A stretch of DNA of 64,000 nucleotides from Candidatus Omnitrophota bacterium (GCA_043823785.1 JBDRAM010000042.1:1563-65562); one strand, 5' to 3'; counted from the stretch's first letter, positions 29,616 through 63,579 are shown. Made by a program: numbers and translations. Notes: generated by a model from the letters alone, not told the origin.

Positions 29616-29650
29616 TTTTAAGGTTTTTTCAGCAATTTCCACTTTTGGGC

Positions 29651-30104: not shown

Positions 30105-30142
30105 AGATTAGCGCAAGGTTTTGTTTTTTTTAAATAAAAAAG

Positions 30143-30171
30143 GCATGTTATTTAAAAGACATGCTTTTTTT
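30143..30171 (+). terminator. Rho-independent terminator after pilA
   Basis: gcatgt...acatgc stem followed by a T7 run. Confidence 0.6.
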
Positions 30172-30184
30172 ATGTCCGTAATTC

Positions 30185-34977: not shown

Positions 34978-36331
34978 GAACAGGAGAGTTATAACCTGTA
35001 GAAAAGCAAGGCGCTGCATGCCTCTTGCTAATCTTAAGGAAGAAAATGCAACCTTAACTGAACATGTAAAGGAGCTGGAGCGCCAGATAAAGGATTTAAG
35101 GCGCAGCCTATACGGGAAGAGGAAGAAGAAAACTTCAATCAAACGAGAACCTAAGAAAAAAGGCGCGCCCTTTGGCCATAAAGGGGTGACCCGCCCTAAG
35201 CCTCAAGCTATAGATGAGGAGATAGAGGTTAGGCCTCATGCCTGTCCATGCTGCGGGAATGAGGAACTAATCCTTACTGGAATAGAACCGGAAGAGCACA
35301 TTCAAGAAGACATAGTGCTGCCAAAAAGAAAAGTAACCAAATACGTAAAGCCTGTCTTTAAGTGTGGTAAGTGTAATAGGCTTGTGCGTGGCGGCCTGGG
35401 AGAGGGTGAAATACCCAATGCCTATATTGGCCCTCAAGCGAAAGCCTTTGCAAATTATCTCCGATATAGTATAGGCATCCCCCAGCATAAGATAAAGAAG
35501 ATATTTCAAGAGATGTTTGACCTGCCATTTGACCAGACATCAGTGCCAGGATTTGAAAATCAACTAACCAGACGCGCTCAACCCATATATGATGAGATGA
35601 GATCCGCACTTCTTCTTATGAAACTACTCTATATAGATGAGACAGGCTGGAAAAAAGACGGCATCTTATACTGGTTATGGTGCTATTCCAACAAGATTCT
35701 TGTATTCTATCATATAGATAAAAGCCGCGGGGGTAAGGTTGTTACGGCAATCCTGGGTGAAAAATTCAACGGGATGATTATCAGTGATTTTTTAAGGGCA
35801 TATGCCCCCATAAAAAGTTTAAAGCAGAAATGCATCCCTCATGTGTTAAGAATGATTGAGAGATATTATAGGGACCAGAGAGATATAAGAGAATTCTGCG
35901 AAGAGTTAAAAGGGCTCATGAAGCGGGTTATATATTTGTTTAAACACAGAACAAATATAAAGGATTATCTCATTAGGCGGGCAAGCCTTATAGTAGAAAT
36001 AAAGAATCTCTTATCGCGGGAGGTAGCCCACCAAAGAACCGATGAATGGAGAAATAGATTATTGGTACATCAAGAGGAGTTATACGAATGTCTATTCCAT
36101 CCCAAGAGTGACTTTAATAACAACTTTGTAGAAAGGATGCTGAGGCCAAGTGTCATAATGCGTAAAATAACCTTCGGAAACCGAAGCGAGAGAGGAATCA
36201 AAAATCACTCTGTAATTATGTCTTTATTGCAGACAGCGAGACTTCACAATCACCATCCCGCGGAAATCTTCTACCAAATATTCACAAAACCTGATGATGT
36301 GCGTCTTGCCAATTTAATAAGAGCGCCCTGA
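34913..36331 (+). CDS. IS66-family transposase (TnpC-like)
   Basis: N-terminal leucine zipper, zinc finger CPCCGN...CGKCN, DDE motif LYIDETGWK and C-terminal NNNFVERMLRP...RKITFGNRSERG, which is IS66-typical. The likely real start is ATG 35018. Confidence 0.8.
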   Translation: MPTPFVKSLETISPEIITKKPKNRRVITCRKARRCMPLANLKEENATLTEHVKELERQIKDLRRSLYGKRKKKTSIKREPKKKGAPFGHKGVTRPKPQAIDEEIEVRPHACPCCGNEELILTGIEPEEHIQEDIVLPKRKVTKYVKPVFKCGKCNRLVRGGLGEGEIPNAYIGPQAKAFANYLRYSIGIPQHKIKKIFQEMFDLPFDQTSVPGFENQLTRRAQPIYDEMRSALLLMKLLYIDETGWKKDGILYWLWCYSNKILVFYHIDKSRGGKVVTAILGEKFNGMIISDFLRAYAPIKSLKQKCIPHVLRMIERYYRDQRDIREFCEELKGLMKRVIYLFKHRTNIKDYLIRRASLIVEIKNLLSREVAHQRTDEWRNRLLVHQEELYECLFHPKSDFNNNFVERMLRPSVIMRKITFGNRSERGIKNHSVIMSLLQTARLHNHHPAEIFYQIFTKPDDVRLANLIRAP

Positions 36332-42909: not shown

Positions 42910-43536
42910 TTGGCCCAGGCAAAAGGAAAAAGACACAGGGAGATATTAAGATATGAGCTTAAGAAGTATTTAGAGAGAAGATCCTCACAAAAGATCTTCA
43001 CATTTCGTCTTACCGCCAGAGGCAAGAGTTTCCACATAAATTATCGAGTTTCAGAAAGAGCTATTCAGGAGGCGGCCATACTGAATGGGCTATATGTTAT
43101 AATGAGCAGCGTAAAGGGTGTAAATGCTGAAACCTTAATCTCTGCTTATCAGAGCAGAATGGAAATAGAGAGAAGTTTTTATCAATTAAAAAGCTTTGTT
43201 GAAATTAGACCTATATACCACCATAATGAGGAACGCATAAGAGCCCATGTAAGCGTTTGTGTATTGGCATATCTGCTAAACAATACGGTTACACATCTAG
43301 TGAGGCAGAAAAAAGATTTTGATGATCTAACAGCGCAGTCGGTATATGGGTATCTCAGGAGTTGTAAGTTAGTCGAATTGAATGCGGGTGGTGAAAAACG
43401 ACTAAAGATCACATCGCCTACGAAAGAACAGATTCGACTTACAGAAATTCTATCGGATAAAGATCTTCTGAATGAGGAGAAGGTTCAAAAAGTTCTAAAG
43501 CAGCTATTAGTGCTAAAAAACACCCTTCATGAATAA
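42910..43536 (+). pseudogene. Truncated IS1634/IS4-family transposase, C-terminal about 208 aa only
   Basis: YQSRMEIERSFYQLKSFVEIRPIYHHNEERIRAHVSVCVLAYLL is the DDE-E region characteristic of IS1634/IS4 transposases. There is no N-terminal half, and a GC-rich remnant sits upstream next to the tRNA. Confidence 0.65.
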
Positions 43537-46748: not shown

Positions 46749-48161
46749 ATGGCTCCAATCATTATCTATATAGTAACCATAGTTACCAGTGCTGCCATAG
46801 CCGGATTTTTAATACGCATGACCACTATGTCGTATTACGCGAAGTTGAAAGAAGATGAGAGGAAAAAAAACGATTTCTTTGCCAGGGATGATGTTACAGA
46901 TCATGAGCTAAAGGAATATGTAAATAGCGAGATACAAAATATAGTGGGATCTGAAAAGCGTTCTCGTGAGATAAGCAAAGTGGTCTCGGATATTATGTCT
47001 AAAGAGGTCAATAAGAAGGTAGAGCAGGCCAGCCAGCAGATAGGAGAAAGATACAATAAGGTCATCGAGCAGAAAATCCAGAACGAAGAGATAGCCTGGA
47101 AAAAATATAAGAAAGTACTCTCCAATAAGAAAGAGACAGAGGCTGTTATCAGAAGCGTTGCCGAAGGTTTAGTTGTGGCAGATTCAAAGGGGAGGGTTAT
47201 TATGATGAATCCTGCCGCGGAGAAGCTTCTTGGCGTATCAAAAAAAGACAAGATAGGTAAGCACATATTAGATAATCTTCAAAAAGGAGAATTGGTAACC
47301 CTGGCTAAGGGCACACCGGAGAAGGATAACATGACGATAGAAGCCAGGAGCCAGGAGGATGAGACCAGAAAGATATTAAGGTCAAGCAGCGCGGTTATAG
47401 AGGATGAGAACGGCCAGACCGTGGGTATGGTCAGTGTATTGAGTGATATTACGAAACAGAGAGAGCTGGATCAGATGAAGTCAAGGTTTGTATCCGGCGT
47501 TACCCACGAATTGCGCACACCCTTAGTATCCGCGCAAAAATCCATATCATTGATACTCAGCAGGGCGGCAGGTAAAGTCTCGGAAGCCCAGCAGCAGTTT
47601 CTTTCCAACGCGGAACGCAATTTGAATAAGTTAAGCGGCCTCATAGATGACTTATTGGACATGTCCAAGCTTGAGGCAGGAAAGCTTGAGATCAAACTTG
47701 AACCGCAGACTGTCGAGAAGATCATTAATGAATCTACAGAGGGGCTGAATGCGTGGGCAGTATCAAAATCTATAGATATTATAGAGGATATACAGGAAGG
47801 CCTTCCCAATGTTAATGTAGATATGCACAGAATAAATCACGTTCTCAATAACCTGATAGGCAATGCTCTAAAGTTTACACCAAGCAAAGGTAAGATTACT
47901 GTAAAAGCAGCCTTGGATAAAGAAGGCAGTGTTGAGATAAGCGTATCGGATACCGGCATTGGTATACCTGAAGCTGCTCTTCCTAAAGTGTTCGACAGAT
48001 TTTACCAGGCAGGTGAGAGGGTCGCGACAGATGTAAGCGGTACAGGCATAGGTTTGTCAGTTGCAAAAGAGGTTGTAGAGCTGCATGGAGGAAAGATATG
48101 GGTTGAGAGCCAGAAGGGCGAAGGGGCTACATTCAACTTTACCCTGTCCCCAGCAGCTTAG
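46749..48161 (+). CDS. Sensor histidine kinase (N-terminal TM, coiled coil, PAS, HisKA, HATPase_c)
   Basis: H-box SGVTHELRTPL. N-box LNNLIGNALKFT. G-boxes DTGIGI and GTGIGLSVAK. Confidence 0.8.
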   Translation: MAPIIIYIVTIVTSAAIAGFLIRMTTMSYYAKLKEDERKKNDFFARDDVTDHELKEYVNSEIQNIVGSEKRSREISKVVSDIMSKEVNKKVEQASQQIGERYNKVIEQKIQNEEIAWKKYKKVLSNKKETEAVIRSVAEGLVVADSKGRVIMMNPAAEKLLGVSKKDKIGKHILDNLQKGELVTLAKGTPEKDNMTIEARSQEDETRKILRSSSAVIEDENGQTVGMVSVLSDITKQRELDQMKSRFVSGVTHELRTPLVSAQKSISLILSRAAGKVSEAQQQFLSNAERNLNKLSGLIDDLLDMSKLEAGKLEIKLEPQTVEKIINESTEGLNAWAVSKSIDIIEDIQEGLPNVNVDMHRINHVLNNLIGNALKFTPSKGKITVKAALDKEGSVEISVSDTGIGIPEAALPKVFDRFYQAGERVATDVSGTGIGLSVAKEVVELHGGKIWVESQKGEGATFNFTLSPAA

Positions 48162-48218: not shown

Positions 48219-48617
48219 ATGAGTAAAAGCAAAGGAGTAAAGATTCTTCTTGTTGATGACGAGCCTGATTTTACACAGCCTATAGAATTTTGGCTTAAAT
48301 CAAAAGGTTATACTGTATTGATAGCGCGGGAAGGAAAAAGCGCTTTAGAGATCATCAAAGCGGACTCCCCGGATATGGTTTTCCTTGACCTTAAGATGCC
48401 TGTCATGGATGGGATAGAGACACTGCGAAATATAAGAAAATTCAATACTGACCTGCCTGTTATTATTATAACGGTTGAATACGCAAACGATAAAAAATTT
48501 GAAGAGGCAAATAAATTGGGAAGTTCAGGGTTCTTCCCGAAAAAAGGAAGCTTTGAAGAGCTGGAAAGCATAATAGGAGTTACTTTAAGAACTCATAAGA
48601 CCTTAAAAGATAAATAA
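48219..48617 (+). CDS. Response regulator, receiver domain only
   Basis: KILLVDDEPDF...VFLDLKMPVMDG. 132 aa. Confidence 0.8.
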   Translation: MSKSKGVKILLVDDEPDFTQPIEFWLKSKGYTVLIAREGKSALEIIKADSPDMVFLDLKMPVMDGIETLRNIRKFNTDLPVIIITVEYANDKKFEEANKLGSSGFFPKKGSFEELESIIGVTLRTHKTLKDK

Positions 48618-48620: not shown

Positions 48621-48670
48621 ATCCCCACACCAACTTCAATTCTGGAAGTTGGTGTAAAGTTGGTGTGGGG
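48621..48670 (+). promoter_or_regulatory. Alternative-hairpin leader immediately upstream of the giant coiled-coil gene RBS
   Basis: Left arm tccccacaccaactt can pair with either of two tandem agttggtgt(gggg) segments (48648-56 and 48658-70). AAGGAGG follows at 48674. Confidence 0.45.
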
Positions 48671-48688
48671 ATAAAGGAGGATAATTCC

Positions 48689-51600
48689 GTGCCCATAATG
48701 CGACCAACAATTAAGGTAAGGTTATGCATGGTTGCAGTTTTCACTATAACGGCTTTTTTACTTGCGGTACTTAGCTCTATCTCTACGGTGAGCGCACAAA
48801 CACCAAGAGAAGGCTCTGTTATCTACGCAAGCAATAAAGCAGGTTTTATTTTTATAAATTTGGGAAAAAACAATATTAATATCGGAGACCTGGTAGAGGT
48901 CTATAGAGACTCTTTACATGTTGGGACTTTTTCTGTCAAATCCGTAATGAAGAATATGTCAGAAGCCTGGGCCATAGATGAGAATAAGGATGTGCTGGTG
49001 AAGATAGGCGATAAGGCTATAATACCGGGCAGAAGCCAAGACGCTATTATGGGTTCCGGCCAGGAAGATTACGAATCGACACAGGAGGAGGAAGAGGCTG
49101 AATTCGAAGAGGAGCATATAGAATCAGCGCCCAAAGAATCTACGCTAACCTATACTAAGGCAGAGGCGGCGCTTTCTTCCAGCTATGCAGCAGATGCTAT
49201 GCAGAAGGATTACGATAATTTACAATATGAGGTCGATGCGTTAAAAGAAAAAATAACTTATTTACAAGGTGAGAACCAGGATATTAAAGGTACAGGCGCT
49301 ATATTAAAAGAAGAGATAGCACTTTTAAAGAAAGAGAAGTCTTCCCTTTCTTCACAGCTTGTTTCCGCCAAGCAGGCCTCGGAAAAGGCAGATGTTCGGA
49401 AAAGCACAGAAGCAACTTTAAGGCAAGAGCTCGACCGCCTCAGTAGTGAAAATAGCTCTATTAAAAAGGAAAAAGAAAGCTTAGAAGAAGAGATAGCCTT
49501 TTTAGAAGATGAGAAGTCTTCACTTGCTTCGAAGCTTGCTTCCGCGGAAGAGTCCAGCGAAGGCCTTGAGGATTTTAAAGATACAGAAGAGAGCCTGAAG
49601 GAAGAGGTGGAATATTTAAAAGATGAAAATGAAGACTTAAAAGATGTAGAAGGGTCACTGAGAGAAGAGATAGAATATCTTAATAAGGAAAAAACCTCTC
49701 TCACATCAGAGCTAACCCTGCTTAAAAAATCTTCTAAAGGCCAGGAGCAGTTAAAGGGCGCGGAAGAGAGCTTGAAGAAAGAGATAGAATATTTAAAAGA
49801 TGAAAATGAAGATCTTAAAGACGCTGAATCTGGTTTTAAGGATGAGATAAGAGATCTGAAAACTAAAAATCAGGAGTTAGAAGATGCGGAGGCTTTGTTG
49901 AGGCAAAAGCTTGCTTCCGGACTTGAAAGCGGAGCAGAGGATGATCTAAAGAACGAGATAGCTTCCCTTGAAGATGAGGCAGCGTCATTAGAGAATGAGA
50001 AGTCATCCCTCCTATCCAAGGTAGATAGTTTAGAAGATTCAAAAGACGAAGTAGAATCTAAGCTTAAGGATGAGATAGCCTCGTTAAAGGAGGCAGAGTC
50101 TGAATTAAAGAATAGAATAAATTTATTGACAGGCACTAAGAGTGAATCGGAAAAAGCCTTAAACACAAAGATAGCCTCTCTGGAAGACGAGCTAGTATCG
50201 TTAGGAGATGAGAAATCATCTCTTCTTTCCAAAATAGATAACTTAGAAGATTCAAAAGACGAAGTAGAATCTAAGCTAAGAGATGAAGCCAATACGTTAA
50301 AAGAAGAGGCAGCCTTATTGAAAAAGGCAGAGTCTGAATTAAAGAATAGAATAAATTCATTGACAGGCACCAATGCCCAGGCGGAAAAAGAGTTAAACGC
50401 AAAGATAGCTTCCCTTGAAAATGTGGCAGCGTCATTAGGGAATGAGAAGTCATCCCTCCTATCCAAGGTAGATAGCTTAGAAGATTCAAAAGACAAAGTA
50501 GAATCTAAGCTTAAGGATGAGATATATGTATTGAAAGAAGCAGAGACTGCCCTAAGGAAAGAGATAGCTTCTTTGACTGAGGATAAAGGCAGCACAGAAT
50601 CTCAGCTGCGTGCCAAGATAGCATCGCTGGAAGATTATATTTATGATTCGAATAAGAAGAATAACTCCTTAAGCGCGAAAATAGCATCGTTAGAGGAATC
50701 CGCGAAGACGATAGAGTCTAGGCTTAATGATGAGATTACTTCATTGGCAGGTTCCGAGATAGACCTAAAGTCTAAGATAAGTTCATTAACCAAAAGCAGA
50801 GATGATATAGAATCTGTTCTGACGGGCAAGGTAAAAACACTTGAAGAAGAGAGCCTCCTTCTAAAGCAGGAAAAGGCATCCCTGAATACGCGTATGCTTT
50901 CTTTAAAAGATTCAGGCGCAGAAGTAGAATCCAAGCTAAAGGATGAGATATCTTCTCTGAATGATGATAAGGGAAAGCTGCAGGATGATTTAACATCAAA
51001 GATAACTTTATTTGAAGAAGAGGCCTCTGCCTTAGATAAAGAGAGATCTTCTTTGAAGTCAAAAGTAGCTTTATTGGAAGAAGCGAAAAGTAAAACAGAG
51101 TCAATGCTGAAGGAAGATATAGTATCTCTGACCAAGATAAGTAACCAGACAGAAAAAGAATTGAGCGAGAAAATATTAACTTTAGAGGGCAAGCTGTCTT
51201 CTTTGGCTAAAGAAAACTTGTCACTTTCCTTAAAAGTTTCGTTACTTGAAAAATCAAAAAAAGACGCGGAAGAAAAATTAAAATCCGAAACAACAGCATC
51301 AAAAGAAACAGAAGCGGAATTAAGAAATAATTTAAGCCTTACAGCCAAGGCCAAGGCAAAGGCAGAAGAAAGCCTGAGCAAGGCCATAAATTCGCTGGAA
51401 AAGGAGATCTTGGCCTTAAAAAATGAGAATATATCTCTTGCAAAGCAGATGGCTTCTATGGGTGACGCTAAAAAGGAGACAGAGTATGAGTTGGGAGAGA
51501 AGATAAAGTCTCTTGCAATGTCCAATGTTGATATAAAATCCGATCTTATGAAGAATATAGAGTCTCTTGAAAAGGAGAAATACTCATTAATTACACAGCT

Positions 51601-54600
51601 GGCTTCGTTAGATGATTCCAAGAAGAAGACAGAGGCATTACTGAAGTCTGAAATAGATTCCTTAATAAATACAGATACTGATTTAAGGTCTAAGGTAGCT
51701 TTTCTGGAAGTAAAAAATAAAGATATGGAGGGGGAGGCCGCGGGCAAGATATCTAAATTGAAGGAGGAAAACGCTCTTTTAATTTCAAAGATCAGTTTAA
51801 TGGAGAATGCGAACAAAAAGACCCAAGCCCAGCTTGGGGAGAAGATAGATTCTCTAATAGACGCCGAGACAAAATTAAAAAATAACATAGCTGTCTTAGA
51901 AGATTCTAAGAAAAAGAGCGAGGCATCGCTTAGCGAAACAATAGTCGTATTAAGAGATGAAAAGAATTCCTTAAGCGCCGAACTGGTTTCCCTGAAAGAC
52001 TCAAAAGAAAAGACAGAGGCCAAACTTTCAAAAGATATAGCGTTGCTTATAGACGCAGAGACTGATTCAAAATATAAACTCGCTTCCCTATCCGATACCG
52101 CGGCTAAAAAAGAACAGGAATTAAGAGGCAGGATAAAGGAATCAGAGGATAAGGTTTCCCAGCTTAATAAGGAGAATTCCTATCTTACAACAACACTTAA
52201 TTCTCTTAAAGGGTCGGAGAGTAAGCAGAAGTCAGAGATCGACTTATTGATTAAATCAAAAAAAGAGCTTGCCTCGGATCTTAGCAATAAGATGGCGCTG
52301 CTTGAGGGTAAGATCTCCGCACTGAATAAAGAGAACGCCCTGCTGAATTCTAACCTTGTTTCCCTCACCGATTCCAAGAATGAGACAGAGGCTAAAATGA
52401 AGCAGCAGGCTGCTTCTTTGCTGGATGCTAAGAATAGTATCGAGTCAGAGCTAAGTGAAAAGATTGATACTCTTGAAAAGGAATCGTCCTCGGTAAACGC
52501 GCAGCTTAAAGCCCTGGAAAACTCAAAAAAATACATAGAAACCAAACTTAAAGACGAGATAACCCTTTTAATAAATTCAAAGAAAGAAATCGAATTCGCG
52601 TTGAATAAAAAAATAGAAGCTTTTAATAATAAGGTTACCTCCTTGGGGGAAACGAATAAATCGCTGTCTACTCAGATAAGATCGCTGGAGGAGTCGAGCA
52701 ATGTCATGGTTGAGAATCTAAGAGGCCAGATAGCAGCTTTAACAAAGGCCAGAGATGATGTCGAGTCGCAACTTAGCGGAAAGATAAAGGCCTTGGAGCA
52801 GGAGAGAGCATCGCTTGGTTCAAAACTCATCTTTCTTGAAAATACAGCCGGCAAAGTAGAGGCTAACCTGAGAAGCGAAATAGCTTTATTGACTAACGCG
52901 AAAATAGAGTCTGAAACTACTCTTAAGAAGGATTTAGATGCTGCCAAGAAGGAGAGGGACTCCCTCATATCCCAGCTGGCATCCTCAGAAGATAGAAGAA
53001 GAGACACAGAAGTACAGCTTAAGGGCGTGGTTGGCTCGCTGACATCTCAGCTTGCTTCCCTGGAAAACGCAAAGGCAGATACGGAGTCAAAATTAAAGGC
53101 TGAATTGACATCTTTAGCAAAGACAAGCAAGACAACAGAATCTGTTCTTCAGGAAAAGATAAAGTCCTTGCAGGAAGAAGCCGCAAGCCTTGTTAAAAAT
53201 AACAATCTTACATCCTCCGCGTTAGCTAAAAAGACAGAGGCGCTTAAAAGCGAAAAGGCTTCTTTATCGGCGAGGTTAGCGGAAACAGAAAAAATAAAGA
53301 ATGAGATGGCTAAAGATCTGAAATCGCAGATAGCCTTACTCGTAGAATCAAAAAACAAGACAGAATCAGCGCTTAGCGCCGAGATAAAAAAGCAAGAAGG
53401 CATTATAAGCGATCTTACTGAAAAAAACAGTACAACATCTTCTGCCTTAGCTAAAAGAATAGAGAATCTTGAGGGAGCAAATCTGGCATTGGCTAAAAAT
53501 CTGGAAGATGAAAAGAAGGCAAAGAATGATATCCAGGCCGTCCTGGAATCCCAGATAGCCTCATTGCTAAAATCGAAAAAGGAAGTCGAAACAGGTTTTA
53601 CAAATAGAATAACATCTTTGGCAGAAGAGATGACATCGATCAGCAAGGCAAAAAATAGCATCGAGTCAGAACTTGGCACCAAGATAAATTCTCTTGAAGA
53701 AGAGATATCTTTTTTGAATTCCGAGCTTACCTCCATGACCAATGAAAAAGATACCATGGAATCGAAACTTAAAAATGAGATAGCGTCCTTGGCCAGTGAT
53801 AAACATAGCAAGGAGATGGATTCCAGCAAGCAGATAAGTTTACTGGAGCAGGAAGCAGCTTCTTTAAATGCCCAGATCAGGTCTTTAGATGATTCAAAGA
53901 AGGATATGAAGGGTACATATATAGATCAGTTGGGCGAATTAAGGGATACAGAAAACAGATTAAAGCAAAGAGTATCGGTATTGGAAAACAGCGAATCTAA
54001 ATTGAAGACAGAAGTAGACTCTCTTTCCAAAGCAAAAAATGAAGCGGAAGCAGAGCTGAAGAAAAAGATAACATTATCTGATAAAGAAAAGTCATTTTTG
54101 ATATCCAAGATGAGCGGCCTGGAGGAGTCAAAAGAGGGAGAGGTTTCTAAGCTGAAGGTGGAACTCGACACCCTTAAAAAGACAAGGCTTGAAGATGAAT
54201 CAGCCCTAAAGGATAGGATAGCATATTTGGAAAAAGAGAGGTCAGAGCTCAACGCTAAGATCACGGATATGGAAAAAGAGAAGAGAGCGGATGAGATAGA
54301 GCTCAGAGACCAGATACTTTTACTTAAAGAAAAGAATGCCGAGGCCAATACGAATATCGCGTCTTTGAAAAAAGATAAGGAAGACGATATAGCGGGCCTT
54401 AGAGCCGGCATGCTCCCTCTTGAGGAGGAAAATTCTTATTTGAGAGCGCAGATAGCTGCTTTAAAAGACGCGAAAAAAGAGACAGAGGCAGAGCTTAAGT
54501 CAGAGATAGTAACATTAAGAGATTCTGAATATAGGCTTAAAGAAGAGTTATCTCTTTTGTCTAAAGAAGGTGAGGATGTAGAGTCAAACCTTTATAATAG

Positions 54601-55411
54601 GATAGCTTCATTGGAGCAAGACAAGGCTACGCTTGCTACAAAATATACCGCCATGGAGAGCGTAAGGGTAAGGCTTAAAGAACAGCTGGATGTTTTAGAT
54701 GATGAGAGAAGCATGCTTTCAGAAAAACTTAGCGGGCTTGAAGGAAGCAAGAAACAGGTCGAGGCCAAGCAGAGTGAAGAGATCAATAACCTGAAGGAGA
54801 GTGAGGCTAAGCTCATAGCGGAGAACGCGTTGCTTAGAGATTCGCTTAAAGAGGCTGAGGCTAATCAGAAAGCTTCTGAATATAAAGTCGGTTCTTTACA
54901 GCAGAAAAGCACAGACAGGGAAAAAAGTTTAGCAGATGAATTAGCCGCGCTTAAAAATGATAAAAAGAATCTGGAGAGCAGGCTAAGCATGCTTGAAAAT
55001 GATAAAGCTGAACTTAGCAAAAAAATTGAGGAAAAAATAGGAGTCGAGGCCGCATTAAGAAAAGAGCTGTCTGTTTCAGATCAAGCGCCGATTAAGGCCA
55101 TGAAAAAAGAGATAAAAGAATTGGAGCCAGAGACTCTGCAAAAAGAGCTTGCGAAAAAAATAGAAGCGAGAGATATGACGGGTATGGTCATAGGAAAAGA
55201 TGACGCTACAAGAGATATTCTTATAGATCTAGGGAATTCTAACGGAGTCTTTAAGGGCCAGATTTTCGAGGTATATCATGACAACTTAAAGGTCGGAACA
55301 TTAAGAGCAGTAAGATGTTATGATACTTTTACTAAAACAGAGACATTGTCCGCGGAAGAGTTTGACAGCATAGAGGAGCTTGATCTGGTGCGTACTTCTG
55401 CTGAAAAATGA
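48689..55411 (+). CDS. Giant secreted/periplasmic coiled-coil protein, about 2240 aa, with homologous N- and C-terminal beta-modules
   Basis: GTG start 8 nt after AAGGAGG. Signal peptide ...SISTVSA/QT. More than 1900 aa of heptad-periodic E/K/S/L-rich repeats. The roughly 99-aa units are near-identical at DNA level (for example 50030-50110, 50250-50330, 50470-50540). The terminal modules GDLVEVYRDSLHVGTFSV and GQIFEVYHDNLKVGTLRAV are related. Confidence 0.8.
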   Translation: MPIMRPTIKVRLCMVAVFTITAFLLAVLSSISTVSAQTPREGSVIYASNKAGFIFINLGKNNINIGDLVEVYRDSLHVGTFSVKSVMKNMSEAWAIDENKDVLVKIGDKAIIPGRSQDAIMGSGQEDYESTQEEEEAEFEEEHIESAPKESTLTYTKAEAALSSSYAADAMQKDYDNLQYEVDALKEKITYLQGENQDIKGTGAILKEEIALLKKEKSSLSSQLVSAKQASEKADVRKSTEATLRQELDRLSSENSSIKKEKESLEEEIAFLEDEKSSLASKLASAEESSEGLEDFKDTEESLKEEVEYLKDENEDLKDVEGSLREEIEYLNKEKTSLTSELTLLKKSSKGQEQLKGAEESLKKEIEYLKDENEDLKDAESGFKDEIRDLKTKNQELEDAEALLRQKLASGLESGAEDDLKNEIASLEDEAASLENEKSSLLSKVDSLEDSKDEVESKLKDEIASLKEAESELKNRINLLTGTKSESEKALNTKIASLEDELVSLGDEKSSLLSKIDNLEDSKDEVESKLRDEANTLKEEAALLKKAESELKNRINSLTGTNAQAEKELNAKIASLENVAASLGNEKSSLLSKVDSLEDSKDKVESKLKDEIYVLKEAETALRKEIASLTEDKGSTESQLRAKIASLEDYIYDSNKKNNSLSAKIASLEESAKTIESRLNDEITSLAGSEIDLKSKISSLTKSRDDIESVLTGKVKTLEEESLLLKQEKASLNTRMLSLKDSGAEVESKLKDEISSLNDDKGKLQDDLTSKITLFEEEASALDKERSSLKSKVALLEEAKSKTESMLKEDIVSLTKISNQTEKELSEKILTLEGKLSSLAKENLSLSLKVSLLEKSKKDAEEKLKSETTASKETEAELRNNLSLTAKAKAKAEESLSKAINSLEKEILALKNENISLAKQMASMGDAKKETEYELGEKIKSLAMSNVDIKSDLMKNIESLEKEKYSLITQLASLDDSKKKTEALLKSEIDSLINTDTDLRSKVAFLEVKNKDMEGEAAGKISKLKEENALLISKISLMENANKKTQAQLGEKIDSLIDAETKLKNNIAVLEDSKKKSEASLSETIVVLRDEKNSLSAELVSLKDSKEKTEAKLSKDIALLIDAETDSKYKLASLSDTAAKKEQELRGRIKESEDKVSQLNKENSYLTTTLNSLKGSESKQKSEIDLLIKSKKELASDLSNKMALLEGKISALNKENALLNSNLVSLTDSKNETEAKMKQQAASLLDAKNSIESELSEKIDTLEKESSSVNAQLKALENSKKYIETKLKDEITLLINSKKEIEFALNKKIEAFNNKVTSLGETNKSLSTQIRSLEESSNVMVENLRGQIAALTKARDDVESQLSGKIKALEQERASLGSKLIFLENTAGKVEANLRSEIALLTNAKIESETTLKKDLDAAKKERDSLISQLASSEDRRRDTEVQLKGVVGSLTSQLASLENAKADTESKLKAELTSLAKTSKTTESVLQEKIKSLQEEAASLVKNNNLTSSALAKKTEALKSEKASLSARLAETEKIKNEMAKDLKSQIALLVESKNKTESALSAEIKKQEGIISDLTEKNSTTSSALAKRIENLEGANLALAKNLEDEKKAKNDIQAVLESQIASLLKSKKEVETGFTNRITSLAEEMTSISKAKNSIESELGTKINSLEEEISFLNSELTSMTNEKDTMESKLKNEIASLASDKHSKEMDSSKQISLLEQEAASLNAQIRSLDDSKKDMKGTYIDQLGELRDTENRLKQRVSVLENSESKLKTEVDSLSKAKNEAEAELKKKITLSDKEKSFLISKMSGLEESKEGEVSKLKVELDTLKKTRLEDESALKDRIAYLEKERSELNAKITDMEKEKRADEIELRDQILLLKEKNAEANTNIASLKKDKEDDIAGLRAGMLPLEEENSYLRAQIAALKDAKKETEAELKSEIVTLRDSEYRLKEELSLLSKEGEDVESNLYNRIASLEQDKATLATKYTAMESVRVRLKEQLDVLDDERSMLSEKLSGLEGSKKQVEAKQSEEINNLKESEAKLIAENALLRDSLKEAEANQKASEYKVGSLQQKSTDREKSLADELAALKNDKKNLESRLSMLENDKAELSKKIEEKIGVEAALRKELSVSDQAPIKAMKKEIKELEPETLQKELAKKIEARDMTGMVIGKDDATRDILIDLGNSNGVFKGQIFEVYHDNLKVGTLRAVRCYDTFTKTETLSAEEFDSIEELDLVRTSAEK

Positions 55412-55650
55412 CGATATATTGATGTAGATTTTGTGCTCTATTAATCATCTCAATGAAGTTTTCAAGAATCAAGCCTATATAATTATGAACTTCCTTTAAG
55501 AATCCCGCCAAAAATTTTTTACAAATCAGCCCAAATTTCCTTGACAGGGTTTATATCTATGATATATATTGAAATTATGATAGATATGATAGTTACAATA
55601 GATTAAGCATTATGAGGAATAAAAAGCCGGCTAATGCGAGGAGAGTAAAT

Positions 55651-55887
55651 ATGCAAAAGGGAGAAAACAACATGATGTCTGCGAATGATATCGCGAAGAA
55701 GCATAATATCAGCTATCAGGCAGTCAACCATTATACTAATTTTGGCCTTTTGCCCGTATCTATAAAAAAAGGCAACATAAGGTTTTATGATAAGGCCATA
55801 GTTGATAAGCGCATGAGGAAGGTTAAAGAGCTTATGGAAGAGGGCTACTCTCTGGGCCTGATAAGAAGAAGATTGATAGGGATATGA
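55651..55887 (+). CDS. Small MerR/excisionase-type HTH DNA-binding protein (paralogue of 21954-22157)
   Basis: MSANDIAKKHNISYQAVNHYTNFGLLP. Start set at ATG 55651 after GAGGAGAG. Sits directly upstream of the ExeA-like/secretin operon. Confidence 0.55.
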   Translation: MQKGENNMMSANDIAKKHNISYQAVNHYTNFGLLPVSIKKGNIRFYDKAIVDKRMRKVKELMEEGYSLGLIRRRLIGI

Positions 55888-55941
55888 TGACAACAAGCTG
55901 CAAGCCGCAAGCAGCGAGTTAAAGGTTATAAAGGTAGATAT

Positions 55942-56820
55942 ATGAGTTATTATAAGATATTAGGTTTTGAAAAAGAACCATTTTCAACAAGCCCTGATCC
56001 TGAATTTTTTTACCTGTCTAAAGAACATGAGACAGCATTGACTAATATCTTGATTGAGCTCAGGCTAAAGAGAGGCCTTACCGTTATCCTGGGAGATGTA
56101 GGAACAGGCAAGACCACGCTTTCCAGAAAGCTTATACAGGAGATGAAGAGAAGAGAGGATTTTATATTTCATATAATATTGGATCCTTCTTTTGAGAGCG
56201 AAAACCTGCTTTTAAGCTCATTGGCTAAGAATTTTGCTATAGCGTTAGGAAATACGGCAGACAATCCTGTCCCGAACATACTTGATCTAAGAGACTCATT
56301 GAAAGGTTTTCTTTTCCAGAAAGGCGTAACAGAGAACAAGGCGGTAGTCCTTATTATCGATGAAGCGCAGAAGCTGAATGAGAATTCACTCGAGATATTA
56401 AGGGTCCTTCTGAATTATGAGACCAATGAGTTTAAACTTCTGCAGTTGGTCCTTTTGGGGCAGCTTGAATTACACGCGAAGATAATGAATATGCATAATT
56501 TTTTTGACAGGATAAGCTTTAAATACAGCTTGAACCCATTTGACCTGGAAGAGACCAAAGAGATGATAGAATTCCGCATAAGGCAGGCAGGCTATAGTTC
56601 GCACATGCACCTGTTTTTGAATGACGCGGTAAGGGAGATACATAATTATAGCCACGGTTATCCCAGAAAGATAACCATGCTATGCCATAGGGCTCTTAAG
56701 GAGCTTGTTATGAAGAATAGGGCTGTAGTAGACGGGGCTTCTATTCGCAAGATGATAGATGAGGAGATAAGATCGGGATGGCACAAGAGAGACCTGATAC
56801 TCCAGAAAAGCAGTTATTAA
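55942..56820 (+). CDS. ExeA/GspA/MshM-like AAA+ ATPase (secretin-assembly type, no peptidoglycan-binding domain)
   Basis: Walker A LGDVGTGKTTLSRKL. Walker B VLIIDEAQ. 292 aa. Confidence 0.7.
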   Translation: MSYYKILGFEKEPFSTSPDPEFFYLSKEHETALTNILIELRLKRGLTVILGDVGTGKTTLSRKLIQEMKRREDFIFHIILDPSFESENLLLSSLAKNFAIALGNTADNPVPNILDLRDSLKGFLFQKGVTENKAVVLIIDEAQKLNENSLEILRVLLNYETNEFKLLQLVLLGQLELHAKIMNMHNFFDRISFKYSLNPFDLEETKEMIEFRIRQAGYSSHMHLFLNDAVREIHNYSHGYPRKITMLCHRALKELVMKNRAVVDGASIRKMIDEEIRSGWHKRDLILQKSSY

Positions 56821-57467
56821 AATTAATAGAAGATCCTAAGTCTAAAACAGCTTCGAAGGCTCAGGCTGTAAAAAGGAAAGGTATAAGCCTGTTTTCTCCG
56901 GGCGCATGGCTCGGGAGGACATCTTTTTTAAAGAAAGGGCTTGGCAGCTGGCTTAAGAGTGAAGGCCTAAAGCTATTAAATGTAAAGGTATTAAATAGGA
57001 CATTAGGCCTGTGCAATTTTATGCTGATAGCCTATCTTGCTGTCAACTTTTCAAACTCTATGATAGAGTTTAAGAATAAGCCTGACCTTGGGTTGAGTGC
57101 CAAGATCGCTAAAAAATCTCCAGAAATAATAGAAGTGGCCTCGCTTCTTAAGGATGAGCCATATTATTTGAATAAAATAGGTGAAAGAAATATATTCGAG
57201 ATGGGCAAGATAGAAAGTGATGATATAATAGGTGAGCCGCAGGTGCAGCTTACTCCTACAGCATCACCTGCTATAGAAGCAACGCAGCACCTGAAACTAG
57301 TCGGCATATCGTGGTCTAATGAACCTGATGCTATGGTTGAAGATACAAGGGCGCTTAGGACATTTTTTGTAAAAAAGGGCCAACTGGTTGGTGAGGTTAG
57401 GGTTAAAGATATTCTTAGGGACAGGATTATACTGACATACCAGGGCGATGAGGTGGAATTGAGATGA
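56778..57467 (+). CDS. Bitopic membrane protein (GspB/ExeB- or MshJ-like candidate)
   Basis: Single TM (LCNFMLIAYLAVNF) after a basic N-terminus. Overlaps the ATPase stop and precedes the secretin. Assigned by position. Confidence 0.4.
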   Translation: MAQERPDTPEKQLLKLIEDPKSKTASKAQAVKRKGISLFSPGAWLGRTSFLKKGLGSWLKSEGLKLLNVKVLNRTLGLCNFMLIAYLAVNFSNSMIEFKNKPDLGLSAKIAKKSPEIIEVASLLKDEPYYLNKIGERNIFEMGKIESDDIIGEPQVQLTPTASPAIEATQHLKLVGISWSNEPDAMVEDTRALRTFFVKKGQLVGEVRVKDILRDRIILTYQGDEVELR

Positions 57468-59284
57468 GAAATAGCCACATCTGTATATCAAGGGTTTTTA
57501 AATTAATAGTTTCAGTAGTTTTTTTACTGGATTTTTCATGCATAGAGCATACGATAGCTGCTGAATCAGAGCTTACGCAATTGGCCCAGGCAGCTGTAAA
57601 CGCGCCCATGGAACAGACAGATATAGCGCCTATCATAAGCGGCATGGGGGGAAAGATCTCACTGGACCTTCGCAATATAGATGTAATGGACGCGCTTAAA
57701 TTCCTGGCTATGAAGACAAGGATGAATATCGTTGCTACAAAGAATGTTACAGGAAGGGTCACGCTTTCGGTAGACAATGTAATGGTAAGAGATATATTCG
57801 ATATAATGCTTCGATCAAACGAGCTGGCCTACGTGGAGCAGGGAAACATCTATAATGTTATGACAGAGGATGAATACAGGACACTTTTTGGCAGGAGTTT
57901 TTCGGATATGCGCAAGGTAAGGACATTCAAGCTTCAATACGTTATACCTGAACAGGGGTTTAGCCTTTTAGATACCTTAAAAAGCACCATAGGCAGAGTG
58001 CTTGTTGAGCCGGATTCGGGCACTGTATTGATCATGGATACGCCTGAGAAGATAGAGGAGATCGAAAAGGCCTTAGAAGAGTTCGAAACGAGAAATGAGG
58101 TAAAGGTCTTTGACTTACAATACGCGTTAGCAAAAGACGTGGAAGAACAGCTTAAGCCGCAGCTAAACGCGAAAAAGGTAGGTACCATAAAAGCGGATGA
58201 ACGTACAAATCAGATTATTGTACAGGCGCTGCCAGGCAGAATGAAGGAGATAGAGGAGTTGGTAATAGCCCTGGATCAGAAGACGCAGCAGGTCATAATA
58301 GATGCTAAGATAATAAAGATAAAGTTTACCGATGCAACAAAAAAAGGGCTTGAGTGGGAAGGTATTTTAAAAAGAGGCGAGCGCATAGGTTCAGCATATT
58401 TGGGCTCTTATCCATTCAGCGCTATCCAGGCAGCTACAGATGTATTCAGGACCAGAAGCCAGGTTTTAGATGATCTGGGTGGTGAGATAGGCTCTATTCC
58501 TTTTAGCGGCTACAGTACTAATTATGGAGGCACAACAAAGACTACTTTTGGTGAGGATATGCACCTGGGCCTCATACATCCTGAGGCAGATGTCGACCTT
58601 CTCATAAATTATCTTAATACAATAGGCAAGACGCAGATCCTTTCAAGCCCAAGGATATCCGCTATTAATAATCAGGAGGCAAAGATACATGTGGGTGAGC
58701 GCCAGGCTTATGTTACTACAACTACTACCAGCGGCCAGACGACGACAACCGTTTCAGAAGAGGTGACATTTATAGATGTGGGTATTCAGTTATCCGTTAC
58801 GCCGGTTATAAATGAAGAAGGCTATGTAAGGATGAAGATAAAGCCTGAGATATCAGCTGTGGTAGATACCTTGGTTACGCCATCGGGTAATAGAATTCCT
58901 ATAATAGATACTTCTACGGCGGAAACGACTGTTTTAGTAAAAGATGGAACCACTATCATAATAGGAGGATTGCAGAAGGAAGAGTCGACAGACAATAAGA
59001 AACAATTCCCTATTTTAGGCAATATACCGATATTAGGTTTTTTCTTCGGTACTGATACCAAGACAACGATAAGGACAGAGCTTATGATAATGCTCACCCC
59101 TACAATAGTAATCGGCGATAAGCTGACAACCGGAGATGAGAGAGACTTCAAGTATGAGCCCGCGAGAGGCTACGATGAGTATGAGAATTTCAGCGAGGAC
59201 AAAGATATGATAAAGCCCACGCAGGAGCCCGAGGAGAGGATAAAGCCTTATATGCCGTATGAGATGGAAAAGGGCGCGTCTTGA
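57464..59284 (+). CDS. Secretin (GspD/MshL-like), second secretin in the window
   Basis: Signal peptide, two secretin-N repeats, and secretin core TTIIIGGLQKEE...FPILGNIPILGFFFG...ELMIMLTPTIV. Confidence 0.8.
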   Translation: MRNSHICISRVFKLIVSVVFLLDFSCIEHTIAAESELTQLAQAAVNAPMEQTDIAPIISGMGGKISLDLRNIDVMDALKFLAMKTRMNIVATKNVTGRVTLSVDNVMVRDIFDIMLRSNELAYVEQGNIYNVMTEDEYRTLFGRSFSDMRKVRTFKLQYVIPEQGFSLLDTLKSTIGRVLVEPDSGTVLIMDTPEKIEEIEKALEEFETRNEVKVFDLQYALAKDVEEQLKPQLNAKKVGTIKADERTNQIIVQALPGRMKEIEELVIALDQKTQQVIIDAKIIKIKFTDATKKGLEWEGILKRGERIGSAYLGSYPFSAIQAATDVFRTRSQVLDDLGGEIGSIPFSGYSTNYGGTTKTTFGEDMHLGLIHPEADVDLLINYLNTIGKTQILSSPRISAINNQEAKIHVGERQAYVTTTTTSGQTTTTVSEEVTFIDVGIQLSVTPVINEEGYVRMKIKPEISAVVDTLVTPSGNRIPIIDTSTAETTVLVKDGTTIIIGGLQKEESTDNKKQFPILGNIPILGFFFGTDTKTTIRTELMIMLTPTIVIGDKLTTGDERDFKYEPARGYDEYENFSEDKDMIKPTQEPEERIKPYMPYEMEKGAS

Positions 59285-59414
59285 TTTTTGAAAGGATTTA
59301 AGATCCTTCGGTCCCCTGCGGGGACCTCAGGATAAATTCGCACTTATAAGTTATGTCGTTCTTCGACAAGCTTAGGACTCCATAACTTATGTGCTCATTT
59401 AGAAAGGGAAAAAA

Positions 59415-60506
59415 ATGAATAAATTTAAGATGATGGCGATATGTGTAGGTATTCTAGTTTTTGTAGAAGGCGCGGGGGTCCTCTATTTTGCTCACAGGGC
59501 TCAGGCGCTTTCCGAGGAGCTGGAGAATGTCGCTCCTGGATTGAAAGAGGAGTTAAACATTCTCAAAAAAGAGAAACAAAAGCTGGAAGAAGAGCGCAGC
59601 AGCCTCGCGGATGAGAACGAAAGAATAAAGAAGGATAGAGAGAATCTACTGGCGCAGACGAAGTTTCTCTTAAATCATAAAGCAAAGGCTGAGGAGCTTG
59701 ATAATGCCATGAAGGCCCTTGAGGCTAAGAAGCAGGAGATAGAGACGGGATTGACATCAAGGAATAAGGAGCTCGAGGATACCTTAAGAAGCGAAAGAGA
59801 GAAATTTGGCACAGAACACAGCGCGTTAAAACAGCAGAACAGCAAGCTGCAGGGTGTTGTAAAACAGCTTATGTATATACAGAAAGAGGTTGAAAGCGAA
59901 AGGGACTATCTTCAGGAAGCCTATGATAAGCTGAAAGATAAATCTACCATAACGGAATTTAAGAAAACAATATCCAATATTACCAAGGATAACAAGGACC
60001 TGGATAATAAGTTTAAGCTCGCGGAAAGAGACACTGAGAAACTAAAAGATCTAAAGAATAAAGCTGACGCGAGGATAGAAAGCTTAGAAACAAGCCTAGA
60101 TGAATATAAGAAGAATTATGATGATGCTAAGAAGAAAAACAATGCTCTTGAGAAAGAGGTAAAGAATATGCCTAAGAAGTTTCAAGAGCTATCCAGGCAG
60201 AACAGAACCCTTATAAAAGAGACAGCCAAGACACATTATAATCTTGGCGTTTTTTACACAAAAGAGAAAGAATATGATAGGGGCGCTTCTGAGTTCGCGA
60301 AGGCTGTTGAGATAAATCCGGATGACGCGTATTCTCACTTCAACCTGGGTTATTTATATGCTGAGCATATGGTAAACCGCAAAAAGGCGCTAGAGCATTT
60401 CAGGCATTTTTTAAGGCTTGCTAAGGGCAATGATAAGGATATAGACTGGGTAAGAAAATATGTACTTACCTGGGATACATACGAAGGCCATAGCGCGTTT
60501 AAGTAA
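59415..60506 (+). CDS. Membrane-anchored coiled-coil protein with C-terminal TPR repeats (MshN/PilF-like candidate)
   Basis: N-terminal TM, about 230 aa of coiled coil, then TPR (YNLGVFYTKEKEYDRGASEFAKAVEINPDDAYSHFNLGYLY). Confidence 0.5.
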   Translation: MNKFKMMAICVGILVFVEGAGVLYFAHRAQALSEELENVAPGLKEELNILKKEKQKLEEERSSLADENERIKKDRENLLAQTKFLLNHKAKAEELDNAMKALEAKKQEIETGLTSRNKELEDTLRSEREKFGTEHSALKQQNSKLQGVVKQLMYIQKEVESERDYLQEAYDKLKDKSTITEFKKTISNITKDNKDLDNKFKLAERDTEKLKDLKNKADARIESLETSLDEYKKNYDDAKKKNNALEKEVKNMPKKFQELSRQNRTLIKETAKTHYNLGVFYTKEKEYDRGASEFAKAVEINPDDAYSHFNLGYLYAEHMVNRKKALEHFRHFLRLAKGNDKDIDWVRKYVLTWDTYEGHSAFK

Positions 60507-60540
60507 GGTCTAGGCTGTAGGTTCTAGGTTGTAGGGTATA
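60507..60540. repeat. Family B half-copy
   Basis: ggtctaggctgtaggttctaggttgtagggtat resembles one arm of family B. Confidence 0.45.
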
Positions 60541-61055
60541 TGGCAAAAATTCTTCATATTATACTAATTCCAATCACAATATTATTTTTAACCATATCAT
60601 GCGGTGTTGCGCATGCCAAAGGCGTAGATTTTGTTATATCATCCGATAAGGCGGAATATAGCAAGGCAGATGCTATAAATATAACATTCAAAATAGTAAA
60701 CAAAAGCAAAGAAGAGATATATATCAATCAGCGCTTCTATATAAATTCTGCGGATACAGAAGAAGGAGAAAGGGAGGTCTACTTTAGGGTTACTTCTCCT
60801 TCAGGTGAAGAATTATCCTGTAAACATAAGAGTGACACAGGTTTTCCAAGGACAGATGATTTTGTATTATTAAAAACAGGTAATGAAATACAAGGGGACA
60901 GGCCTAAAAATATAAAAGGCCTTTTTGATTTTGATAGTACCGGAACTTATGAGATACAAGCAACGTACAAAAATATATATGGTAAAGAAATAGGGCTTGA
61001 TGTTTTTAAAGAAAAGATCGATTCTAAACCAATAAAAATAAAGATAGCGGAATGA
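60540..61055 (+). CDS. Secreted protein, unknown
   Basis: Signal peptide ILFLTISCGVAHA/KG. 171 aa. Confidence 0.45.
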   Translation: MAKILHIILIPITILFLTISCGVAHAKGVDFVISSDKAEYSKADAINITFKIVNKSKEEIYINQRFYINSADTEEGEREVYFRVTSPSGEELSCKHKSDTGFPRTDDFVLLKTGNEIQGDRPKNIKGLFDFDSTGTYEIQATYKNIYGKEIGLDVFKEKIDSKPIKIKIAE

Positions 61056-62736: not shown

Positions 62737-63579
62737 ATGGATAAAGGCGCATTTTATAAGATCTCAAGGTTGAGCATATTTTTGATAATGGTATCTTTAA
62801 TATTATCTTATCCTGTTCCAAGCCAAACGGCATGGGGCAAGGGTGAGGCAGAGGCAAAGGCCGCGAAAGAAGCCAAAGAGGCCGAAGAAGCGAAAAAAGC
62901 CAAGATGGCAGCCATTGAAAAAAAGAGGCAGATGATAAAGGTTGTAAAAGAGAAGCTAAACAATACTGCCTGGAATATAGAGATCAAAAAACTGGGCAGC
63001 GCTGGTAAAGACAAGAAGCCAGAGATCATTAATGATAGATTGAATTTTGTAAACAACCAGGTAGGGTCTGCTATGCTGGGGCGTGATGGTTTTTCCAATA
63101 CAAACTTCTCCGTAAGAATAAATGAGAGCAGAGGCCCTACAGGTAAAGATCTTATTATCTGGGAGACTATGCAGACAAGTGAAGAGAAGGGGCTTTCATT
63201 TTGGAGAGGTGAGTTTGAAGAAGGTGATACCACAATGCGCGGCGCGTTAAGCCGGCACTATGATAAAGAAAATATTGAGAATTATACGTTTTCCGGCGTA
63301 AAAGGAGATATTGCAGAAGCCCCTGCTCCTGAAGCAGAAGAAGCGGTTGTGGTTGAACCAGCTAAAGAGGATGTAGGAGCCCGCCTGCCCCTAGAAGCTA
63401 GTGGCGGACAGGCTGCCTCCGGCGGCGAATTAGAAGAGAAAGTAGTTGAGAAGGCCGAAGAAATAATAAAGAAAACCGAAGAAAAGGCGGAAGAAAAGAT
63501 TAAAAAAGCAGAGCCTGAAGAAAAGAAAGAATCCGCAGCCCCAGCCAAGAAAGAGAAGAAAAAAAGAGGGCTTTGGTAA
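62737..63579 (+). CDS. Secreted lysine/glutamate-rich low-complexity protein
   Basis: Signal peptide, KEAKEAEEAKKAK repeats, C-terminal EEKAEEKIKKAEPEEKKE. Confidence 0.5.
   Translation: MDKGAFYKISRLSIFLIMVSLILSYPVPSQTAWGKGEAEAKAAKEAKEAEEAKKAKMAAIEKKRQMIKVVKEKLNNTAWNIEIKKLGSAGKDKKPEIINDRLNFVNNQVGSAMLGRDGFSNTNFSVRINESRGPTGKDLIIWETMQTSEEKGLSFWRGEFEEGDTTMRGALSRHYDKENIENYTFSGVKGDIAEAPAPEAEEAVVVEPAKEDVGARLPLEASGGQAASGGELEEKVVEKAEEIIKKTEEKAEEKIKKAEPEEKKESAAPAKKEKKKRGLW

Follow-up and report, generated by a model that had tools for sequence, protein, structure and literature searches.

The 64-kb stretch of DNA analyzed here (the window; all positions are counted from its first letter) is Omnitrophota-like and carries on its plus strand a giant gene, whose 2240-amino-acid (aa) product is an extreme, by far the longest found, member of an undescribed barrel-coil-barrel family. 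The modules at both ends of this giant protein are a known domain type, namely FlgT_C-type beta-barrels (PF16538 superfamily) that are homologues of TsaP's two C-terminal domains. The novelty lies in the barrel-coil-barrel architecture and in the length, the barrel domain itself being already known. Here, a barrel known from outer-membrane rings is found at either end of one of the longest continuous bacterial coiled coils in our search, in a conserved slot at a secretin operon and in a phylum whose lifestyle is presumed to rest on attachment to other cells. The organism is uncultured and the gene accessory, and from domain homology and gene order only we infer that the giant protein may act as a periplasmic, secretin-associated rod or tether, a reading that we consider plausible, if somewhat short of probable.

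Reading frame and export signal

The ORF listing and translation reveal one unbroken open reading frame (ORF) on the plus strand (48665-55411) that ends with a stop codon at 55409-55411. The GTG codon at 48689 starts 8 nt after the Shine-Dalgarno sequence AAGGAGG (48674-48680), while the first ATG (48698) lies 17 nt away from it, and because of this spacing we regard the GTG as the best start and the ATG as less likely. This agrees with an earlier note on this DNA (the original prediction), which had called an ORF of ~2240 aa at 48689-55411. The signal peptide claimed there is likewise borne out by the N-terminus (VPIMRPTIKVRLCMVAVFTITAFLLAVLSSISTVSA followed by QTPREG), in which a K/R n-region, a hydrophobic stretch of ~23 aa and a VSA/QT site give a Sec-signal-like appearance; this call was read from the translation by eye. 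The same reading shows no lipobox in the N-terminal signal region, and the N-termini of the orthologues at loci L014 and L022 are equivalent to that of the giant protein. The Sec-signal-like features suggest that the giant protein is exported, and both a cleaved peptide and a signal anchor would fit. Exact-sequence look-ups of the giant protein (with both starts) and of the neighboring secretin matched no record. Long antisense ORFs within the giant gene (e.g. 50641-52023 on the minus strand, 460 aa) were rejected as genes and regarded as by-products of the stop-poor, purine-rich repeat.

The end modules are FlgT_C-type barrels

The N- and C-terminal modules of the giant protein had been predicted to be homologous, which holds: BLASTP aligns them with 17 identical residues out of 41 (E 2e-6), and each matches one family profile at about 1e-24. 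AlphaFold2 models built with family alignments (predicted local distance difference test score, pLDDT: C module 95, N module 90) contain six strands in identical order at both ends, hence a shared barrel fold. The further claim that the two ends are identical anchoring domains had to be abandoned, as the modules are only 23-26% identical over the full domain. Comparison across the orthologues described below gives 42-64% identity among N modules and 40-46% among C modules, against ~23% between N and C modules. Since N and C modules are conserved separately among orthologues and have diverged from each other, each end appears to be under its own constraint, which argues for two different binding surfaces rather than identical anchors.

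Foldseek searches with the module models placed the FlgT structures 8z5n and 3w1e at the top ranks, and the modeled six-stranded barrel topped by a helix can be superposed on FlgT residues ~292-377. In agreement with this, Pfam reports FlgT_C at E<=0.01 in 37 of the 60 homologues scanned (best 1.8e-10). A 32-sequence module profile searched against the PDB sequences matched TsaP (3jc8_Ta) at E 1.8e-6 in two places, 209-283 and 314-401, which correspond to both of its barrels; the next matches have E values of 0.26 or worse (6ve2_O, E 0.57). The original prediction could not match the architecture to any described pilus or secretion component. This stands insofar as we found no characterized giant coiled-coil family of this kind, but not for the modules, which are the known FlgT_C/TsaP barrels and occur in a comparable secretin context.

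To our knowledge, the only characterized jobs of the FlgT_C/TsaP barrel are in ring-building around outer-membrane machines, in the H/T rings of the flagellum and in the belt of PilQ. In TsaP, the two FlgT-C-like domains assemble into a C7 belt that surrounds the PilQ secretin (10.1101/2020.05.29.123786), and FlgT_C scaffolds the flagellar T-ring (10.64898/2025.12.02.691832). The giant protein nevertheless differs from each of the known proteins with which it can be compared. TsaP (PDB 3jc8 chain Ta, 6ve2 chain O), whose barrels are homologous to the end modules, is a protein of ~340-410 aa with a LysM domain for peptidoglycan binding at the N-terminus and two tandem barrels (CI and CII) joined by a short linker. 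In the giant protein, in contrast, the barrels sit at opposite ends, ~2050 residues apart, and neither Pfam nor NCBIfam detects a LysM domain in the whole protein or in its N-terminal 201 aa. No second FlgT_C-like (TsaP-like) protein is present elsewhere in the 64-kb window. FlgT (PF16538; PDB 3w1e, 8z5n), which belongs to the H-ring of the flagellar motor in Vibrio, contains N and M domains but no coiled coil and is encoded in flagellar loci, whereas the window carries no flagellar genes and the giant protein scores 14 bits against a Pfam cut-off of 27 bits.

MreC is a transmembrane (TM), coiled-coil and beta-barrel protein whose similarity to the end modules is at the level of the fold; its coil is short and its gene belongs to mreBCD operons. 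Pfam finds no MreC match (PF04085) in the giant protein, and mreB and mreD were not found nearby in the window. One Omnitrophota locus (L087) encodes a bona fide MreC alongside a small member of the barrel family. Periplasmic adaptor (membrane-fusion) proteins of tripartite pumps possess a short intramolecular coil hairpin together with lipoyl and membrane-proximal domains; the giant protein has neither of these domains, no detectable hairpin apex and no adjacent pump genes. Small uncharacterized barrel-coil-barrel proteins of ~330 aa share both the module family and the layout with the giant protein but have a far shorter spacer.

The rod carries a continuous hydrophobic seam

Between the two barrels the giant protein is dominated by E, L, K and S, which make up 53.5% of its residues, and a single proline (aa 1907) occurs between aa 145 and 2131 (~1985 residues), leaving a helix-compatible length of ~1950-1980 residues. 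Fourier analysis of the hydrophobic positions yielded one sharp line at 3.557 residues. A unit of 32 residues with 9 core positions, i.e. three heptads plus one hendecad, has a period of 32/9 = 3.556. Over aa 430-1950 the normalized power is 6.8 at 32/9 versus 0.15 at 3.5, while 500 shuffles averaged 0.2 and did not exceed 1.5. Heptad periodicity (3.5) is confined to aa ~180-420 (power 1.86). The rod is thus not heptad-periodic throughout, as had been proposed: only aa ~185-410 lie near 3.5, and the period of aa ~410-1950 is 3.556.

An iterated repeat profile recovered ~55-65 copies of SLKSKIASLEDSKKDTESKLKEEIASLEDEN in the rod, spaced by 32, 33, 38 or 39 residues. Despite this unequal unit spacing the hydrophobic seam is phase-continuous for ~1500 residues: its phase stays within 0-80 degrees over aa 407-1367 (~30 repeat units) and later drifts smoothly without jumps. 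Because loops between separate helices would break the phase of the seam, this argues for one continuous helix of ~1950 residues. Seam continuity and the presence of one proline fit a single rigid rod, which at 0.148 nm per residue would measure ~0.29 µm if fully extended, in line with the fibre of ~0.3 µm that had been predicted.

The statement that many repeat units are almost identical at the DNA level could not be reproduced. Tandem Repeats Finder returned one array (50091-50520, period 234, 1.8 copies, 82% matches), and the best direct DNA repeats reach 85% identity along 175 nt and 77% along 234 nt. The sole recent tandem duplication, a super-repeat at 49956-50577, looks like a fairly recent triplication. 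A Pfam match of the rod to 'Rab11-FIP3' was dismissed as compositional noise, as were many matches of the homologues to eukaryotic coiled-coil families.

Orthologues in the same genomic slot

With the neighboring ExeA-like ATPase as query we retrieved 80 genome loci (L numbers; 57-78% identity), the titles of which are mostly Candidatus Omnitrophota or Omnitrophica, with a minority of uncultured Planctomycetia/Planctomycetales, Margulisiibacteriota, Brocadiaceae and plain 'bacterium'. Common to these loci is a gene order of PAS kinase, receiver, (MerR), ExeA/GspA/MshM-like AAA_22 ATPase, GspB/C-like protein and secretin, continuing with a TM, coiled-coil and TPR protein, two unknown genes and a cyclophilin. 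A barrel-coil-barrel gene lies between the receiver and the MerR/ATPase genes in eight loci, namely the window, L014, L022, L006, L043 and L081-L083, the last three of which come from a metagenome scan and end inside the gene. A search for the same layout beside secretin genes, as the original prediction had suggested, hence yielded seven further loci. In all eight the gene stands directly upstream of the (MerR)-ExeA-like-GspB/C-like-secretin genes, and the family is characterized by two end barrels, a coil period of 3.55-3.58 and the slot between the receiver and the secretin operon.

Coil identity among the eight loci is 27-39%, and the orthologue coils share the period of 3.55-3.58 with the giant protein. 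Two orthologues are complete, those of L014 (781 aa; equivalent to P0001, 776 aa) and L022 (714 aa), while the other five copies besides the window and these two (L006, L043, L081, L082 and L083) are cut by contig ends. The last 490 aa of the giant protein are colinear with the L006 fragment (38.7% identity). The orthologues of ~700 aa align to the first ~600 and the last ~600 aa of the giant protein, and since they match both ends, its extra length appears to be mostly an expanded middle.

The wider barrel-coil family

A two-sequence end-module profile was searched by exhaustive HMMER against 1.84 billion representative proteins (P numbers), which gave 255 matches at E<=1e-3. Word-indexed protein searches found nothing with the N and C modules as queries and P0003 alone with the module profile. 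By layout, the top 150 of the 255 representatives comprise 73 proteins with a coil and a C-terminal barrel (~250-350 aa), 24 with a barrel-spacer-barrel arrangement, 20 with tandem barrels and 15 with an N-terminal barrel followed by something else. The barrel-to-barrel spacer is typically 80-110 aa long and reaches a maximum of 585 aa (P0001), compared with ~2050 aa in the giant protein. The family combining a coiled coil with a FlgT_C-like barrel is thus widespread and unannotated (255 representative clusters), and part of it is linked to the cell-wall elongasome. Among ten clusters for which database names were looked up, four carry a name ('hypothetical' and one automatic 'EnvC') and six have none. 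A literature search for FlgT-like proteins returned no description of such a family, and two Omnitrophota surveys that deal with giant ORFs and pili contain neither 'coiled' nor 'secretin', nor, in the one where it was looked for, 'FlgT'.

Two fusions bear on the location of the module. P0037 (749 aa) combines an N-type barrel and coil with a TolC-like OEP domain (E 9e-42); three to four tandem barrels precede an outer-membrane-protein-like (OMP-like) C-terminus ending in F in P0026 (1272 aa). These fusions to outer-membrane proteins support a periplasmic location of the barrel module. Two small proteins consisting of signal peptide, coiled coil and barrel, P0006 (L087:8001-9092, Omnitrophota) and P0048 (L086:8001-8807), are encoded between rluD and murA-mreB-mreC-mreD-PBP2-RodA, a setting that points tentatively to a function of some family members in the cell wall or elongasome.

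Further long coils occur in related genomes. Six loci (L011, L025, L028, L032, L034 and L035) encode coiled-coil proteins of 800-2090 aa with the same barrel at the N-terminus only; their gene lies downstream of a TPR gene and their period is 3.60-3.61. The longest of these (L025:12057-18326, L035:14648-20437) comprise 1930-2090 aa. TonB_C-like C-termini were suspected in those of L028 and L035 but were not confirmed by Pfam. The TPR protein encoded after the secretin ranges from ~330 aa to 1629 aa across Omnitrophota (L052:11687-16573, L059:15495-19652, L044:13467-17210), with canonical heptads (3.50) in L052 and L059 and a peak at 3.556 in L044. As both the barrel giants and the TPR proteins vary, long variable coils appear to be a recurring feature of the secretin locus. 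In another Omnitrophota clade, the gene for a coiled-coil protein of 420-700 aa with no detected barrel is inserted after the ExeA-like ATPase gene and before that for the GspB/C-like protein (L033, L041, L042, L046, L047, L049, L053, L055, L059, L060 and L065).

A possible secretin-associated rod and its alternatives

We tentatively favor a role of the giant protein as a periplasmic rod or tether associated with a secretin. The Sec-exported protein would stay in the periplasm and consist of an N barrel, an acidic linker, a continuous two- or multi-stranded coiled coil of ~1950 residues and a diverged C barrel. The rod may serve as a long tether or scaffold on the secretin machinery whose genes follow 2 kb downstream, on the PilQ-type secretin at 24.9 kb, or on both. 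By analogy to the TsaP barrels on PilQ and to FlgT_C in the T-ring, the end barrels might dock on, or oligomerize around, ring-shaped envelope complexes, with the secretin or its accessories as obvious candidate partners. Because ~290 nm is far too long to cross the periplasm, the rod would have to run parallel to the membranes, and could thereby link two distant sites or hold the second barrel away from the first. If the barrels bind secretins, the family would represent a new type of secretin accessory, and its rods of 560 to 2000 residues a natural series for asking what long periplasmic coiled coils do.

Several observations weigh against this proposal. The link between the giant protein and a secretin consists only of gene adjacency to the secretin operon. 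In most close relatives (e.g. L002, L004, L009, L013 and L017) the slot is a gap of 250-450 nt that contains no gene, and since most relatives with the same operon lack the giant gene, the secretin does not need it. The complete orthologues of 714-781 aa indicate that no fixed envelope dimension sets the length. Because three of the nine core positions of the SLKSKIASLEDSKKDTESKLKEEIASLEDEN consensus are polar, the oligomeric state and the stability of the coil are uncertain. Pfam detects FlgT_C in the giant protein in the C module only and below the cut-off of 27 bits (13.8-14.1 bits, E 0.065-0.079), and the signal peptide may be an uncleaved signal anchor, its cleavage and the location of the protein being predictions from the sequence. 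A ruler spanning the periplasm, as originally envisaged, is unlikely in view of the short same-slot orthologues, the many relatives without the gene and the extended rod length of ~290 nm, which exceeds the reported Omnitrophota cell size of ~0.2 µm. More elaborate versions of a secretin-linked role, in which the rod, exceeding the diameter of a nanobacterium of ~0.2 µm, girdles the cell inside the periplasm and couples the secretins at 24.9 and 57.5 kb through its two different end barrels, or threads a secretin as a retractable host tether with one barrel retained on the periplasmic face, strike us as rather improbable. If either were true, it would define a new secretin accessory class in which a TsaP-like belt domain acts as a long-range mechanical link.

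Among the alternatives, an extracellular or surface fibre would make the giant protein an attachment stalk of up to ~0.3 µm for host or prey contact, perhaps exported via the neighboring secretin and resembling the long coiled-coil surface fibrils of other bacteria. Omnitrophota have cells of roughly 0.2 µm, are inferred to be epibionts, predators or parasites, and their pili have been linked to attachment (PMC10066038), which would suit such a stalk. An accessory gene with a threefold length range among orthologues and recent internal duplications is also typical of surface structures, and the adjoining secretin has no ATPase or platform gene in its own operon. We still consider a surface fibre unlikely, since the characterized barrel relatives (FlgT, TsaP) and the TolC-like and OMP-like fusions are periplasmic, Pfam and NCBIfam find no adhesin, lectin, enzyme or anchor domain, and neither a lipobox nor a beta-barrel or sortase signal is apparent. 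Moreover, both barrels are well conserved in the orthologues, unlike variable adhesin tips. A comparably doubtful possibility is a cytoskeletal or envelope scaffold in the periplasm, MreC-like or filament-like, that serves wall synthesis or cell shape and for which the secretin locus would be incidental; the giant protein would then be an enlarged relative of small coil-and-barrel proteins. The murA-mreBCD-pbp2-rodA context of the small relatives P0006 and P0048 would be in line with this, as would the MreC-like fold of the modules, MreC likewise combining a TM segment, a coiled coil and a beta-barrel; ~290 nm would correspond to about a third of the circumference of a cell of 0.2-0.3 µm. However, a secretin-adjacent slot kept in eight of eight loci at 27-39% coil identity is hard to call incidental, the giant protein has no Pfam MreC match, and absence from most relatives is unexpected for a core shape determinant.

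The remaining two explanations concern the rod itself. Its length could be an assembly artefact, i.e. a real ORF with a wrong repeat number caused by collapse, expansion or chimeric joining, as the original prediction had cautioned. Five of the eight homologous contigs break within the gene, which indicates that short-read assemblers struggle with it, and the only complete orthologues have 714-781 aa. Against this, the frame is open across 6.7 kb, internal DNA repeats do not exceed 85% identity or 234 nt and are thus too diverged for easy mis-joining, the phase of the seam runs on through the entire rod, and the C-terminal 490 aa match the L006 fragment colinearly. In addition, other Omnitrophota (L025, L035) encode coiled-coil proteins of 1930-2090 aa with the same N module, so that we regard an artefact as very improbable. 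The rod might also fold back on itself into an SMC- or adaptor-like intramolecular hairpin, with the N and C barrels paired as CI and CII are in TsaP, but this is unsupported: the midpoint at aa ~1110-1210 keeps a seam power of 1.2-1.5 and shows neither a phase jump nor a Gly/Pro cluster.

Genomic context of the giant gene

The features of the giant gene and its surroundings are compiled in Table 1. Annotation of the neighbors confirms the kinase/receiver pair, the secretin module and the pilus-like locus that had been noticed around the gene.

Table 1. Coordinates of the giant gene, its segments and the adjoining genes in the window
Feature	Position	Strand	Basis or remark
PAS histidine kinase	46749-48161	+	position upstream of the secretin module conserved in Omnitrophota
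Single-domain receiver	48219-48617	+	as for the kinase
Nested RNA hairpin between receiver stop and ribosome-binding site of the giant gene	48623-48670	+	sequence, RNA folding
Shine-Dalgarno AAGGAGG (48674-48680) and probable start codon GTG (48689-48691)	48674-48691	+	sequence
Giant gene	48689-55411	+	2240 codons plus stop
Probable Sec-type signal peptide, possibly uncleaved signal anchor: VPIMRPTIKVRLCMVAVFTITAFLLAVLSSISTVSA then Q	48689-48796	+	read from translation
N-terminal FlgT_C-type six-stranded beta-barrel	48797-49027	+	
Acidic low-complexity linker, begins GSGQEDYESTQEEEEAEFEEEH	49028-49240	+	translation; hydrophobic periodicity absent
Heptad-like coiled-coil segment, aa ~182-410, period 3.45-3.5, 59-aa repeats	49241-49927	+	periodicity; DNA repeat families D4, D6
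Main rod, ~1720 aa, ~55-60 diverged units spaced by 32 or 39 aa, consensus SLKSKIASLEDSKKDTESKLKEEIASLEDEN	49928-55087	+	periodicity and repeat profile
Sole recent tandem duplication: super-repeat of 213-234 nt (71-78 aa) in three copies, 69-85% identical	49956-50577	+	DNA repeats
Short linker with prolines ahead of the C module	55088-55165	+	prolines aa 2131, 2144; translation
C-terminal FlgT_C-type beta-barrel, six strands and capping helix	55166-55408	+	
Sigma-70-like promoter match TTGACA-18-TATATT, 11/12, before the MerR gene	55541-55570	+	consensus match only
Conserved secretin-assembly module, whole	55612-60506	+	same order in 80 Omnitrophota loci
MerR-type regulator	55612-55887	+	
ExeA/GspA/MshM-like AAA_22 ATPase	55942-56820	+	
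GspB/C-like protein	56778-57467	+	
Secretin	57464-59284	+	
TM, coiled-coil and TPR protein, 363 aa	59415-60506	+	

The RNA hairpin lies inside the 56-nt gap between the receiver stop and the Shine-Dalgarno sequence and has stems of 15 and 6 bp, with a minimum free energy of -32.2 kcal/mol (z -4.2 versus shuffles). Lacking a T-run, it does not qualify as a classical terminator, and roles in processing, stability or attenuation are conceivable. Downstream of the giant gene, the strong sigma-70-like consensus match makes it probable that the secretin operon has its own promoter. Two conserved genes, 60540-61055 (171 aa) and 62737-63579 (280 aa), travel with the secretin operon and a cyclophilin-type peptidyl-prolyl isomerase in most Omnitrophota loci and have no Pfam or NCBIfam match.

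Further upstream, the window contains a complete type IVa/MSHA-like set at 22.2-32.3 kb (22188-32254), comprising a PilM-N fusion, PilO, a GspB-like protein, a secretin, a PilB/MshE-type ATPase (MshEN), PilC, a pilin and a TPR protein; minor pilins are encoded at 43.6-46.5 kb. A minus-strand ORF of 518 aa directly after this first pilus cluster (32251-33807) gave no Pfam match at E<=0.001. Also encoded are a DruA-like (Druantia) gene and an IS66-family transposase, the start of which it overlaps (34096-36331), and a truncated DDE transposase lies at 42910-43536, thus mobile and defence DNA separates the two pilus/secretin clusters. The first 14 kb of the window consist of housekeeping genes. 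Altogether two secretins are encoded in the window, the PilQ-like one at 24898-26397 and the second one at 57464-59284 in the ExeA/GspB-type operon, which does not supply its own ATPase or platform gene. In many related loci (e.g. L044, L052, L054, L061, L064 and L068) two secretin-TPR pairs are arranged in tandem.

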